A stretch of 64,000 nucleotides of DNA from positions 32,001-96,000 of the IMG/VR virus record IMGVR_UViG_3300020424_000002; one strand, 5' to 3'. A program made the position numbers and the translations under genes. Of the stretch, positions 14,355 to 32,616 are shown piece by piece; within the stretch, counting starts at the first letter, position 1, and the number at the start of each line of letters is the position of its first letter. Under the pieces are notes generated by a model. The model saw only the letters and a program-made list of their open reading frames with translations, searched no databases and was not told the DNA's origin. The DNA is from a virus.

Positions 14355-14939
14355 ATGGCAGGATTATTCGACAAGTTAGAAAGAGAAGCCTTTAGAGGTG
14401 GAATCCAAGCAAGGACTAAAGAGTCCATGAGATGGTTTAGAACTCGTGTCTCTCAAATAAAAGGTGTCAATAGAAACCAATTGATGAAAGATGCAAGAAA
14501 TAGAAAAAGGTTCATATATGGTGACATGTATATGTACATGTATGACCCTAAACATAAACGAACCTTACCTTATTATGATAGATTCCCTCTTACTATACCA
14601 ATAGAACCAGCAAAAGGTGGTTTTTTAGGGTTAAACTTGCATTATTTACCACATACATTGAGAGCTCAGTTTTTAGACCAATTATATGACCGAACAAATA
14701 ACACTAAGTATGACGAATCAACTAGATTTAATGTCACATATCAATTACTTAAAGGTATTAGTGGTAAACCATATTTTAAACCATGTGTAAAACATTATTT
14801 AACCAGTCAGATACGAAGCAGTTTTGCAATAGTAGACTCAGCAGATTGGGAGATTGCAATATTTCTACCAACTGAATCATTTAGAAAGTCTACTATGGAT
14901 AATGTCTGGAAAGAAAGTAGGAAGAAAATAGCAGGATGA
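14355..14939 (+). CDS. gp2: DNA end protector gp2
   Basis: MYMYMYDPKHK.TLPYYDRFPL, GFLGLNLHYL, KPCVKHYL, W..A.FLPTE.F. Confidence 0.95.
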   Translation: MAGLFDKLEREAFRGGIQARTKESMRWFRTRVSQIKGVNRNQLMKDARNRKRFIYGDMYMYMYDPKHKRTLPYYDRFPLTIPIEPAKGGFLGLNLHYLPHTLRAQFLDQLYDRTNNTKYDESTRFNVTYQLLKGISGKPYFKPCVKHYLTSQIRSSFAIVDSADWEIAIFLPTESFRKSTMDNVWKESRKKIAG

Positions 14940-15547
14940 AATTAGAAAGATTTAAAGCACAGATAGATAATTTGCAAAGACCCAATAGATATAATATATC
15001 AATGTTTGGCACTGGTGCAAAGACTGGTGGTCTATCAATCAGAGGATTAAAATGTGAATCTGCAACTATGCCAGGCAGAGGTTTCTTTACTCAAGAGGAA
15101 TCAGAATATGGGCCTAAAAGAGCAATCCCACACAAACCACAATATGACCAATTTGATTGTTCTTTTTATATGACAAACGATTTTGAAGAAAGAGAGTTGA
15201 TTGAATTGTGGCAATCACAAATAAATTCATTTCAAAGTGGTAATTTTCACAGTAAATTTCATGATGATTATACTGGAATTATATTACTAGAAATGTTAGA
15301 TAAAAATGATTTTGTTAATTACAGATGTATCATGACTGATGCATTTCCATTACAATTAGGTGTAATAAATGTAGGATATGAGAATACAGATGTAATGAAA
15401 TTTAACGCACAATTTAGATATAGATATTGGAATAGTGAATTTACTAATTCTAAACCATCTAACCTAATTACTGGTTATTTGGATAAATATTTTTCTAAAC
15501 TTGGAAACAAGGTAAGAGGTAAAATCGAAGATGCAATCTTTGATTAA
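14936..15547 (+). CDS. Baseplate tail-tube initiator (gp54/gp19-like)
   Basis: RPNRY, CESATMPG, DAFP, F.Y..W tube-fold motifs; position between gp2 and gp26. Confidence 0.75.
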   Translation: MKLERFKAQIDNLQRPNRYNISMFGTGAKTGGLSIRGLKCESATMPGRGFFTQEESEYGPKRAIPHKPQYDQFDCSFYMTNDFEERELIELWQSQINSFQSGNFHSKFHDDYTGIILLEMLDKNDFVNYRCIMTDAFPLQLGVINVGYENTDVMKFNAQFRYRYWNSEFTNSKPSNLITGYLDKYFSKLGNKVRGKIEDAIFD

Positions 15548-15563
15548 TTGATAGGAGTATATT

Positions 15564-16289
15564 ATGGCATTACCTAAATTAAATACTATAGAGTATTTTT
15601 GTAAGTTACCTGTCTCTGGTAGAGAAGCAAAATACCGACCATTCACTGTAGGTGAACAAAAGGTATTACTTCAAGCACTAGAAGATGGAGAAGTTAAGAC
15701 GATATCTAACACTGTTGTCAACTTAGTTGACTCGTGTTGCACTTTAACTGAGTCGAAAGACACTGTTAGGGATTTATCGAATACAGACTTAGAGTACTTA
15801 TTCTTACAAGTAAGGATTAAGTCTGTTGGTGAAGTCACCAATGTAGTACTTGGTTGTGAAAACCAACCTACATGTGATGGACAATCTACTGTAGAAGTAG
15901 ATTTAACAAGTATTGATATTGAAGGAGAAATTAAGGATAATAAAATTATGTTAACAGATAGTGTTGGTGTAACTCTAAAAGTTCCTAATTTCAACGAAAT
16001 ACAAGCAACTATTGGAGATATAACTGAAATAGGTTCTAGTGACATATTCAGTGTATTAGCACAATCAATAGAATCTATATTTGATGCAGAAGAAGTCCAT
16101 AATAAAGGTGATTTTACAACCAAAGAGTTAAATGATTTTGTTAATGAATTATCTACAGAACAATTTAACAATATAATGGAATGGTTTAGTAGCTTACCAA
16201 AACTGATTAAGGATGTCGAATACAATTGCAGTAAATGTGGAACACCATGTAAGGTTAGGTTAGAAGGAATACAGAATTTTTTCGTCTAA
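15564..16289 (+). CDS. gp26: Baseplate hub assembly chaperone gp26
   Basis: MALPKL, YRPFTV.E.K.LL.A, DLEYLFLQVR.KSVGE, C..C, LEG.QNFF. Confidence 0.9.
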   Translation: MALPKLNTIEYFCKLPVSGREAKYRPFTVGEQKVLLQALEDGEVKTISNTVVNLVDSCCTLTESKDTVRDLSNTDLEYLFLQVRIKSVGEVTNVVLGCENQPTCDGQSTVEVDLTSIDIEGEIKDNKIMLTDSVGVTLKVPNFNEIQATIGDITEIGSSDIFSVLAQSIESIFDAEEVHNKGDFTTKELNDFVNELSTEQFNNIMEWFSSLPKLIKDVEYNCSKCGTPCKVRLEGIQNFFV

Positions 16290-16474
16290 CCCTTTCTCAT
16301 GAAACACTTGCAAATTATATTCAAACAAACTTTGGTTTAATCCAACATCATGGTTGGTCACTAAACGAACTGGATGATATGCATCCATGGGAAAGGGAAA
16401 TATATGTTTCCCTACTACTACAACATCTCGAAGAAGAGGAGTTGAAGTATAAACAAGCTCAAAATAAAAGATAG
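16283..16474 (+). CDS. gp51: gp51-like domain with no start codon; probable -1 frameshift extension of gp26
   Basis: LSHETLANYIQTNFGLIQHHGWSLNELDDMHPWEREIYVSLL matches the short gp51 of T4-like phages; -1 frame relative to gp26; slippery T TTT TTC at 16277-83. Confidence 0.85.
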   Translation, partial: RLTLSHETLANYIQTNFGLIQHHGWSLNELDDMHPWEREIYVSLLLQHLEEEELKYKQAQNKR

Positions 16475-16483
16475 GAGAGTATT

Positions 16484-16867
16484 ATGAGTGATAGAGAAAA
16501 GTTTAGTGGTGACATGAGTCGTAATGAGGTTGAAATTGACCTCAGTAAATTTATGGAAATGGTCACTGAGAACAACGACCTCAAACAAAAAATATTTGAG
16601 TTAGAACATGATGACAAAAAAAATCCATGGCAAAAATGGATATTTCTTGCAAGAGCAGTAGATAGTTGGAGAATATGGCCTCGTGCATTTTTAAGTGTGT
16701 ACATATTCTTAATTTACTTCGTAGTAATGTGGTTCATAGGATTAGAAGCACCGACAATGGAACAGTCTGGTCTTATCAGTATTCTGGTAGGAGCTGGAGC
16801 TGCTTGGTTTGGACTGTATGTAAATAGTGCAGCTAAAGAACACGATTCAAATAACAATAGTAAATAA
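16484..16867 (+). CDS. Two-TM membrane protein with N-terminal coiled coil
   Basis: DSWRIWPR followed by two hydrophobic helices, GA.AAWFGLY; SD AGGAG. Confidence 0.65.
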   Translation: MSDREKFSGDMSRNEVEIDLSKFMEMVTENNDLKQKIFELEHDDKKNPWQKWIFLARAVDSWRIWPRAFLSVYIFLIYFVVMWFIGLEAPTMEQSGLISILVGAGAAWFGLYVNSAAKEHDSNNNSK

Positions 16868-16875
16868 ATAGTATT

Positions 16876-18813
16876 ATGGCAGAAGAACCTAAAGAAGTTG
16901 GAGCTGGGTTGGAAAAAATCTTCATGAATCGTATCGTGAAGCAAATAAAAGAATCCAATACAGAAAATACAATGACCCTTGCAGAAAAGATTGAGACTGC
17001 AATGGAAGGTATTTCTAATTTAAATGTTGCAGACACCAATAAATTAACCATGGCTACTAAAATGCAAGGTTCAATGGTCAAAGAATCAATAGATGACTTT
17101 ATAAATGAAAGTGGGATTGCAAATCTTACTAAAAATATAGACATTTTAGAATCAGACATATCTGATATGAAATCCACATTAGAAAAGAATGGTCAAGATA
17201 CCAATATATCTGCAATCAAAGAACTAGAGGAACAGAAAAGACAACTAGAAGAAATTCGTCAATATGGTAAAACTCTAAGTGGATTTGAAAGAAATGTTAT
17301 TAAAGTTTTTGGTGGTGGATTTGAAGAGTTAAAAAGGTCTGTTCAAGAAGGTGGTAACTTAACTGTTGCTGGAATTGCAACTTCATTTAAAGATAATCTT
17401 AGAGGAGACTTTGATAGAGTATTAAGTTTCTTTGGGCCTGCTGTTGGTATATTACAACAAATACCATTCCTTGGTACTATACTTACATTCATAGGACAAA
17501 GTATGAAATCAGTCTTGATTAGATTAGCAATGGCTGCCAAAGATAGAATATTTGGTAAAAAAACTGATAAGAAACGACTATCAATAGACGAAACTAATCT
17601 TAAAATAAATCAAAGGAATGTTAAACTTCAAGAACAACAATTAAGAACACAAAATAAAGCTGCAATATCTGGACAAACAGTTCTAGGTGGTGGAGATGAC
17701 CAACCAGTAGAAGCTGAAGGTGATGATGCAAAAGGTGGTGGTTCATTTAGAGCTGCATCTGTATTCTTAGGAGTTGCAGCTGCAATTGGTGGTGTTGCTG
17801 GTGCTGGATTATCTGCAGCTGCAGCTGGTATGAGTATATTTGCAAAAGGTGCTTTAAGATTTGCAGCTGCATTAGCAGTTGGTGGTCTTGCACTAGGTGT
17901 AGGGTTCACTGGTGTTTTTGGTGCATTTGCACTTGGTGAAAAGATGGGAGCATTCGATGGAATGGAAGCATTTGGTAAGGTCAATATGCTTAAAGTTCTT
18001 GGTAGTATGTTAGGTCTTGCAACTTTAATGGGAGTCTTAGGTTCAATTGTAACCTCTGGTATTGGTGCATTAATCATGGGAGCTGGTGCATTAGCAATCA
18101 TGGCTTTAGTAGGTACTTTGGTCTTGATGGGTAAAGGATTAGGTGAGTTTGCAGAGGGTATTTTACCTTTTGAAAAAATGAATATCCCTAGAATAAAAAC
18201 TAACATACAAGATATGGCAACTGTGGCTCCTGAGATTAAAGAATTAATGGATGCTGGTAGTGGTTCATTCTTTTCTTTTGGTGACCATCCTTTAAAGAAA
18301 CTTGCAGATGCATTAAGACCATATGAAGGTGATATGGGAAATGCAGCTGGAAATCTTAAAGAACTTAAAGGTGCATTAACAAATTTCGAATTACCTAAAA
18401 CAACTCTAGGAGAAGCATTGAGAGATTTCTTTGGTGTAGGTGCAATTGACCAATTAAATAGACTTGGAGAAATAGAAATAAAAGATGGACTAGGTGTTGA
18501 AATGTCTAGTCTTGGTAATGGTGTAAGTGTATTATCAAAGGCATTAAATAATTTAGATAGTACTAAAGTTGGACATTTAAAAGAACTATCAAATGCATTA
18601 GGTCGTATGAATAAAGTTGAGTTGAATTTTGGAACTGTTGGAATCCAGTCACCAACATTTACATCTGAAAATGGTGATATGACTGGTCAAACAGTTATTA
18701 ACAATGTAGTTTCAAATCCAATAAGTCAAAATAATACAACTATTAGACAAAGTTATATGGCAACTGGTTCTAAGGCAGTTCCTTCCCACATTCATTATAA
18801 TTCAATGAAGTAA
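16876..18813 (+). CDS. Tail tape measure protein (gp29-like)
   Basis: Coiled-coil N-terminus, Gly/Ala-rich hydrophobic core, C-terminal TVINNVV motif; follows gp26/51. Confidence 0.7.
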   Translation: MAEEPKEVGAGLEKIFMNRIVKQIKESNTENTMTLAEKIETAMEGISNLNVADTNKLTMATKMQGSMVKESIDDFINESGIANLTKNIDILESDISDMKSTLEKNGQDTNISAIKELEEQKRQLEEIRQYGKTLSGFERNVIKVFGGGFEELKRSVQEGGNLTVAGIATSFKDNLRGDFDRVLSFFGPAVGILQQIPFLGTILTFIGQSMKSVLIRLAMAAKDRIFGKKTDKKRLSIDETNLKINQRNVKLQEQQLRTQNKAAISGQTVLGGGDDQPVEAEGDDAKGGGSFRAASVFLGVAAAIGGVAGAGLSAAAAGMSIFAKGALRFAAALAVGGLALGVGFTGVFGAFALGEKMGAFDGMEAFGKVNMLKVLGSMLGLATLMGVLGSIVTSGIGALIMGAGALAIMALVGTLVLMGKGLGEFAEGILPFEKMNIPRIKTNIQDMATVAPEIKELMDAGSGSFFSFGDHPLKKLADALRPYEGDMGNAAGNLKELKGALTNFELPKTTLGEALRDFFGVGAIDQLNRLGEIEIKDGLGVEMSSLGNGVSVLSKALNNLDSTKVGHLKELSNALGRMNKVELNFGTVGIQSPTFTSENGDMTGQTVINNVVSNPISQNNTTIRQSYMATGSKAVPSHIHYNSMK

Positions 18814-31513: not shown

Positions 31514-32616
31514 TCAGTTCTTAATAATATAATGTGTTCGTTTATTCTTCCAGTTGGTTTAGATGATTTTGTGTTTATTTCATCTAATACTTTACTTAAT
31601 ACTATTTTACCACCTTCTTGGATTCTGTCAAGGAAATGTTTTGTCCTGTTTCCAATCTTTTTAGTTGCACTGTATTTTCCAAAGTTTTGAATAGTTGTTC
31701 CTTTCACTCCAAGACCAGCTCTATCTTCTGATTCATATTTGGTAATCTCTTTGGTTTTGGTATTGAATGCCCATAGTTGTCCAGACCCTACAATTAACTC
31801 TGGATTAATTGATGTAAGATGATACTCTGTATCAGTTATCTTGTAGTTTAACTTTTTAGTTTGTTCTTGTGCAGAGTAAACTTTTTTTCTTCTAGTTTTC
31901 TTCTGACCCATTTTACCTTTTGCATACTTATCACATTCTTCTCTGATACCACAAACATATTTGTATGCATCCCTTAGTCCTTTTTTAGATAAGAATGAGT
32001 ATGCTTCTTTTAGTTGTGGACATTTACCTTCAACTGCTTCTTCTAATTCTTTTTCTAGGTTGTGGAAATTATCACCTACTTTTACTGCAACTGGGCCTGA
32101 TACTTGTTCATCTGTTAGATATGCAAAGACATCAAATTTGTTTTTAGGGTCATCAAAGTATAAATCTAATTGATATTCTATCTCACCAGCATATTCATTT
32201 GCTTTGTTTAGAATTCTTTCTTGAATAGAGATAACTGGTTTCTTTTTCTTTTCTTCGTCTTTGATTGCTTTGAGAGAATCTATGTCTTTGATACATTTAT
32301 CGACATGTTTTTCTATGAATGCAGTTGTAGATGGATTTAGTAAATCCCCTTCGAACATACAAGGAACTGACCTAGTTTGCATTCTTGCAAGGGCAGCTGC
32401 AGTTCTAGGGACATACTTAAGTCTCTTAACTCCTTTGATATATTTGTCTTCATAGTCCCTATCAGACATCCATGTTGATAACCATTCACCACATGATTTA
32501 TTATCACTCATGTAGTTGTACCAATTCATGCATCTTCCTTTGTCTCTTTCGTCTTCTGCATGAGGTTCTACACCATAATAGATTTCATCAAGAGATTTTT
32601 GTTTTCTCTTACTCAT
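31510..32616 (-). CDS. Conserved T4-like hypothetical protein
   Basis: NWYNY, ISIQER, QLKEAYS.L, S..P..IVG...LW.FNTK, VKGTTI. Confidence 0.7.
   Translation of the reverse strand: MSKRKQKSLDEIYYGVEPHAEDERDKGRCMNWYNYMSDNKSCGEWLSTWMSDRDYEDKYIKGVKRLKYVPRTAAALARMQTRSVPCMFEGDLLNPSTTAFIEKHVDKCIKDIDSLKAIKDEEKKKKPVISIQERILNKANEYAGEIEYQLDLYFDDPKNKFDVFAYLTDEQVSGPVAVKVGDNFHNLEKELEEAVEGKCPQLKEAYSFLSKKGLRDAYKYVCGIREECDKYAKGKMGQKKTRRKKVYSAQEQTKKLNYKITDTEYHLTSINPELIVGSGQLWAFNTKTKEITKYESEDRAGLGVKGTTIQNFGKYSATKKIGNRTKHFLDRIQEGGKIVLSKVLDEINTKSSKPTGRINEHIILLRTE

Follow-up and report, generated by a model that had tools for sequence, protein, structure and literature searches.

The chaperone gene and its overlapping reading frame

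The stretch of viral DNA that we analysed (the window; 64,000 nt, positions 32,001 to 96,000 of IMG/VR record IMGVR_UViG_3300020424_000002) contains a gp26-type gene at positions 15564 to 16289 of the plus strand. The encoded protein of 241 residues was assigned to the short form of the tail assembly chaperones (TAC-N) on the basis of an AlphaFold2 model and of its matches to PF12322 (T4_baseplate; E = 6e-51, 173.6 bits against a curated cut-off of 24.5) and phrog_150 ('baseplate hub'; E = 5e-53). A DNA end protector gene (14355 to 14939) and a gene for a tube-like protein of the gp54/gp48 tube initiator type (14936 to 15547, plus strand; phrog_45 'tail tube', E = 2e-29) precede gp26, the latter directly upstream of it. 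A tail tube initiator is annotated at the position equivalent to 14936 to 15547 in Pelagibacter phage HTVC008M and Vibrio phage CZ01. Genes for a predicted membrane protein of 127 residues (16484 to 16867, plus strand; phrog_10198, E = 5e-19) and for a 645-residue tape measure candidate in the position of gp29 (16876 to 18813, plus strand) follow. The gene order is tube-like gene, chaperone gene, extension, small ORF and tape measure candidate, which places the pair downstream of a tube gene and just upstream of a tape measure candidate, the location expected of tail assembly chaperones.

An earlier note on this DNA had proposed that a programmed −1 frameshift fuses the end of gp26 to a gp51-like sequence that lacks a start codon of its own. 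Inspection of the gp26 3′ end agreed with the layout on which this proposal was built. The gene ends with CAG AAT TTT TTC GTC TAA, in which a slippery heptamer of the form X XXY YYZ is set in the gp26 frame (T TTT TTC, 16277 to 16283, plus strand). The heptamer ends two codons before the stop, such that a single codon separates it from the zero-frame TAA (16287 to 16289, plus strand). The −1 frame is closed by a TAG at 16256 to 16258 (plus strand), which marks the 5′ limit of the region in which a shift could occur, and is then open from 16259 to a TAG at 16472 to 16474 (71 codons, VRRNTEFFRLTLSHETLANY...). No ATG, GTG or TTG occurs in this frame before the ATG at 16379, which falls midway through the conserved segment. 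The part that extends from the heptamer (16283 to 16474, plus strand; 63 residues plus stop; phrog_634) is a gp51-type C-terminal segment and is startless. The interval available for a shift, bounded by the −1-frame stop and the gp26 stop, was found to be 31 nt instead of about 28 nt, and the lengths of gp26 and of the conceptual fusion came to 241 and 303 residues as had been claimed. A startless −1 ORF therefore overlaps the 3′ end of gp26, and a conserved X XXY YYZ sequence lies inside the overlap, which is the arrangement of a frameshift pair.

The likeness of the −1 peptide to gp51 was borne out by a match to phrog_634 ('baseplate hub assembly catalyst'; E = 6e-27). The 71-codon peptide also matches the C-terminal end of phrog_150 (positions 228 to 279 of 282), a first hint that some members of this family carry both parts in one chain. 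A Pfam search of the extension returned no matching model, and the segment is labelled PF28602 in a protein database. The window's own genome (a 146-kb record that is estimated to be 81% complete) contains one PF12322 gene, so that a long form would arise there only via recoding.

Equivalence of the conceptual fusion and T4 gp51

PF12322 is found in both T4 gp26 (208 residues) and T4 gp51, as it is in gp26 of the window. T4 gp26 consists of the PF12322 domain alone. In T4 gp51 (249 residues), residues 1 to 201 match PF12322 (E = 4e-52) and residues 147 to 246 match phrog_634 (E = 1e-23), such that this protein combines, in a single ORF, a gp26-type domain with the same C-terminal extension as in the window. 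Comparison of the fusion with full-length T4 gp51, one of the checks suggested earlier, gave one HSP that covered residues 13 to 285 of the fusion and 7 to 244 of T4 gp51 (E = 7e-11). The alignment is ungapped at the junction (window fusion GIQNFFRLTLSHETLANY, T4 gp51 DIVDVFKLLVNPDEIFTF), and the extension is colinear with residues 201 to 244 of T4 gp51.

Because T4 gp51 is a gp26-type domain plus extension and T4 gp26 is the domain alone, the short and long forms of T4 are two paralogous genes. Genes 26 and 51 of T4 are divergent neighbours; the long form is encoded there by a separate single ORF on the strand opposite gene 26 and requires no slip, whereas the window would use one gene and a slip. 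A single-ORF long form is present in about 1,375 records from phages of the enterobacterial, Acinetobacter and Aeromonas groups and their relatives, and in one of these records it is annotated as 'tape measure protein assembly chaperone'. Both T4 proteins are listed as chaperones of hub assembly, and virions contain no gp51 (PMC3004832).

Conservation of the probable slip site across related phages

We examined nine annotated phages, comprising cyanophages ACG-2014d, P-SSM2, S-T4, ACG-2014b and S-MbCM6 and the non-cyanophages Pelagibacter phage HTVC008M, Agrobacterium phage Atu_ph04, Vibrio phage CZ01 and Sinorhizobium phage phiM7. In all nine, T TTT TTY occupies a pair of Phe codons located 0 to 2 codons before the gp26 stop and the gp51-like frame is −1. 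Metagenomic loci (30 close and 80 distant) were added, both parts being located by HMMs. The 117 loci with both parts span the Kyanoviridae, HTVC008M, a KVP40-like vibriophage, phiM7, Atu_ph04 and about 110 metagenomic contigs, and clustering at 60% gp26 identity reduced the loci to 62 lineages. The relative phase of the two parts was not random in these homologs: the gp51-like ORF was in the −1 frame at each of the 117 loci, and none of them was fused.

The heptamer, whose conservation the earlier note had proposed to check, was present as T TTT TTN in all 62 lineages (33 with C, 25 with T and 4 with A in the last position), and in every one of them the first T of the run coincided with the first X of X XXY YYZ. 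Together with the phrog_634 match, the recurrence of phase and heptamer places the overlap well beyond coincidence. The codon before the heptamer specifies Ser, Asn, Asp, Ala or Gly and is always AGT, AAT, GAT, TCT, GCT or GGT, with a third-position T in 62 of 62 lineages; gene-specific codon usage gives P of about 1e-16 for this pattern, a value that is overstated in that the lineages were treated as independent. Similarly, the first Phe codon is TTT in all 62 lineages compared with 72% elsewhere (P of about 1e-11). Four lineages with TTT TTA (Phe-Leu) retain the heptamer, which indicates that it is kept even without the Phe-Phe motif of the short form. Judged from these codon choices, the constraint on the slip site acts at the nucleotide level. 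The zero-frame stop is also close by throughout, 0 to 3 codons past the heptamer in 62 of 62 lineages and exactly one codon past it in 46, and the interval available for a shift shrinks to as little as 10 nt among the 62 lineages.

The same 303-residue fusion would result if RNA polymerase added one U on the T6 run in some transcripts, as a one-base insertion gives the identical −1 phase and junction peptide, and runs of seven or eight T do occur in 25 of the 62 lineages. However, the other 37 lineages, the window included, have only six T, and six T is shorter than the runs known for useful slippage by bacterial RNA polymerase. Moreover, the third-position T is kept (62 of 62) even where TTT TTT T already provides seven T, and the X XXY YYZ register is fixed in all 62 lineages, whereas a site for polymerase slippage would be a long homopolymer in free register. 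A tandem −1 slip by the ribosome is the mechanism best supported by these data because it needs both the fixed register and the third-position T, which the polymerase does not. We consider transcriptional slippage unlikely and retain it because it yields the same protein.

A second consideration is whether gp51 could be a small gene in its own right, with ribosomes re-initiating after gp26 termination or using a non-canonical start codon such as AUU or CUN. GenBank records of several phages do contain a separate short gp51, an ATG is found within 14 codons of the heptamer in 18 of the 62 lineages, and T4 gene 26 carries an annotated internal product, 26′. Against this, we found no conserved gp51 start. 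In 28 of the 62 lineages no ATG, GTG or TTG occurs within the 14 codons that follow the heptamer; in the window none precedes the middle of the domain. SD-like motifs were absent before the candidate gp51 starts of the 62 lineages, whereas in the real genes of the window a TAGGAG stands some 7 nt ahead of the ATG. An independent gene would also leave the heptamer, the fixed −1 phase and the third-position T unexplained, and T4 gp51 shows the segment at work as the C-terminal part of a chain that begins with a gp26-type domain. We regard a separate gp51 as quite improbable. The suggestion that the short gp51 of these phages is not an independent gene was thus strengthened, both by the lack of a conserved start and by the finding that T4 gp51 is the single-ORF equivalent of the fusion.

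The T6 run of the window is shared by five contigs of 90-98% identity from different metagenomes, which excludes an assembly or sequencing indel. More generally, although homopolymers are error-prone and 'fused' singleton proteins of about 300 residues are found in metagenome gene catalogues, the reading of the locus as an indel error in the T-run or as a gene broken by a frameshift mutation is refuted by the same T-run and phase in 117 of 117 loci, isolate genomes and independent assemblies included, by purifying selection on both frames and by the nature of the fused forms, which are nearly all singletons, several with irregular junctions.

Annotation of the locus in databases

Ribosomal slippage was annotated in none of the nine GenBank/RefSeq records that we inspected. 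The gp51-type segment was unannotated in four records and was given in five as a truncated ORF that begins at an internal ATG, in two of these as a hypothetical protein. Metagenome catalogues list in-frame 'fused' proteins of about 300 residues that contain both PF12322 and PF28602 (P0003 to P0049 and P0096). The irregular junctions in some of them (SFFSRKYGH, SFWLGM) suggest homopolymer indel errors. P0096 (292 residues, 4 members, 5 contigs, junction FIDFFFNHLTL) may represent a true fused lineage. Gene catalogues hold truncated or spuriously fused versions of the chaperone. Rules for annotation could draw on the counts obtained here (62 lineages, the constraint on synonymous sites and the SD-like element and stop codon as possible stimulators).

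Proposed mechanism and possible stimulators

At gp26/gp51 we observed the overlap, the phase, the heptamer and the homology directly. From the comparison of sequences it is very probable that a −1 slip on TTTTTTC yields proteins of 241 and 303 residues from one tail-assembly gene. According to this model, most ribosomes would stop at the TAA at 16287 to 16289 to produce the 241-residue short form. A minority would slip back by one base with two Phe-tRNAs on UUU UUC (16278 to 16283), which would re-pair on UUU UUU. Following the slip, these ribosomes would read CGU CUA ACC... and continue to the TAG at 16472 to 16474, thereby producing the 303-residue long form (...LEGIQNFF-RLTLSHE...). If the long form arises by a slip, then the 'gp51' ORF would be its C-terminal extension and not a gene. 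By analogy with lambda G/GT, both forms would coat the tape measure protein, the extension might recruit tube or hub subunits, and the ratio of the short to the long form would presumably matter; it is from this analogy that we infer a role for the extension and the 'fixed ratio' that was proposed earlier.

Heptamers of the X_XXY_YYZ type have been described previously, and U_UUU_UUA/U is shift-prone in E. coli (PMC5009743). The slip site of pea enation mosaic virus is reported to be stop-dependent (PMC5009743), and the stop in the window has the same geometry. In addition, an SD-like sequence in the window, AAGGA (16264 to 16268, plus strand), lies 8 nt upstream of the heptamer. An SD-like 4-mer was found 6 to 18 nt upstream of the heptamer in 59 of 62 lineages compared with 10% of control windows, a signal that is confounded by a conserved E-G dipeptide. 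Where a Glu codon occupies the SD-like site it is GAG in 21 of 43 cases (49%), compared with 25% elsewhere in the same genes. Both the upstream AAGGA and the stop one codon downstream are possible stimulators of the shift.

RNA structure downstream of the heptamer was not significant in the window (z of −0.6 to −1.0), and a weak tendency toward such structure was seen across lineages (mean z of −1.35 compared with −0.47 for controls). Tentatively, the site could function as a minimal cassette that has no downstream structure and in which efficiency is set by the SD-like GAGG or AAGG sequence 8 to 10 nt upstream together with the next-codon stop. In P-SSM2 (L002:1519-1580), a hairpin of −18.8 kcal/mol (z of −4.5) starts a few bases past the heptamer; neither the window nor most of the lineages have such a hairpin.

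Predicted structure of gp26 and of the extension

An AlphaFold2 model of gp26 was built from 58 sequences (pLDDT 90.8). In a structural search of 48,161 chains that was independent of Foldseek, the top three matches were 3FGX (Z 6.8), 3KLU (YqbN; Z 6.4) and 2OB9 (Z 6.2), each to residues 1 to 98 of the model, with 82 to 85 residues aligned at an rmsd of 3.9 to 4.6; these fits are of modest strength, with Z below 7. The third of these, 2OB9, is the HK97 tail assembly chaperone and was also the highest-probability, though weak, Foldseek row for gp26, and we take 3FGX and 3KLU to be chaperone-type proteins of phage or prophage origin as well. The fourth structural row had a Z of 4.8 and is likewise from a phage satellite. 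A Foldseek search of the gp26 model against the PDB gave nothing at E ≤ 0.001, and the gp26 profile had no match to PDB chain sequences up to E = 10. Although the scores are modest, a ranking in which chaperones come first for the modelled N-terminal domain would be hard to put down to chance. As the structural matches are limited to residues 1 to 98, gp26 looks like a chaperone-type N-terminal domain to which a second, beta-rich domain bearing Cys pairs is joined. The predicted fold of gp26 thus resembles solved tail assembly chaperones with modest strength, and in this respect it agrees with the phase, the heptamer and the equivalence to T4 gp51 in pointing to a chaperone of the lambda G/GT type, as the earlier note had read it.

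The two Cys pairs of gp26, CENQPTC (residues about 97 to 104) and CSKCGTPC (residues about 222 to 229), are common to T4 gp26 and to the proteins of the Vibrio and Agrobacterium phages. In most of the cyanophage homologues only the first pair survives, NPKTKK having replaced the second. The two pairs suggest a zinc ribbon.

In a model of P0042, a fused metagenome relative of 299 residues, the extension is predicted, with low to moderate confidence, to form three or four helices (pLDDT 51 to 76). A complex prediction that paired the extension with gp19, the major tube protein encoded by this genome, returned 'no answer' with a score of 0.00, which counts neither for nor against such a complex.

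Relation to known frameshift systems

Levin et al. (1993) and Xu, Hendrix and Duda (2004) are said to have described lambda gpG/gpGT and the −1 frameshift that is conserved in the chaperone genes. The gp26 protein of the window has no detectable sequence similarity to gpG/gpGT; with its 241 residues it is the larger protein, and it contains an extra beta-rich domain with Cys pairs. The lambda slip site is G GGA AAG, whereas the heptamer of the window is U UUU UUC, and the window differs from lambda further in that an ORF for a small membrane protein lies before the tape measure candidate. In E. coli dnaX the heptamer is A AAA AAG and is followed by a strong hairpin, which has no counterpart in the window. 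The known geometry of the upstream SD-like element of dnaX is possibly shared, this element being about 8 to 10 nt upstream of the heptamer. In lambda, binding to the tape measure protein is a property of gpG and the G part and binding to the tube protein a property of the T part, with a 30:1 ratio of the two products (PMC5009743). The −1 frameshift itself, conserved among tail assembly chaperone genes, is reviewed in the same paper (PMC5009743).

A closer precedent exists within the T4-like phages. According to papers that cite it, Vladimirov et al. 2022 described short TAC-N and long TAC-NC isoforms, and one such paper credits this work with the observation that TAC-N genes in T4-like phages carry poly-T signals for a −1 slip. 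Citing the same source, the PRFect paper (PMC10885494) states that some T4-like phages dispense with a slip and have a short gene plus a second, longer gene for the fusion. As represented in these citing papers, the chaperone frameshift of T4-like phages is already known (Vladimirov et al. 2022), and the window adds an ordinary case to it, with the same gene family and feature in one more uncultured marine member. In the parts of the literature on gp26/gp51 and frameshifting that were available to us, there was no direct report beyond the papers citing Vladimirov et al. 2022. T4-like phages are, since the publication of 2022, no longer an apparent exception to the rule that long-tailed phages make a short and a long chaperone.

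The tape measure candidate and the small ORF

The earlier note had placed a tape measure gene two ORFs downstream of gp26. The 645-residue ORF is indeed found there; its identity as a tape measure protein is a matter of position, size, composition and look-alikes from a language model (Atlas); BLASTP comparisons with T4 gp29 and with the tape measure protein of HTVC008M gave no match. The Atlas feature matches were to PF25671 (T4_Tape_measure) clusters, with scores of 0.92 to 0.93. The middle of the protein (residues about 290 to 420) is a long, hydrophobic stretch that is rich in Gly and Ala.

The 127-residue protein whose gene (16484 to 16867) separates the chaperone gene from the tape measure candidate is hydrophobic in its C-terminal half, and phrog_10198, to which it belongs, is a family of unknown function. 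This protein could be a gp28-like part of the hub or a further assembly factor. A small ORF is present at the same place in HTVC008M and phiM7.
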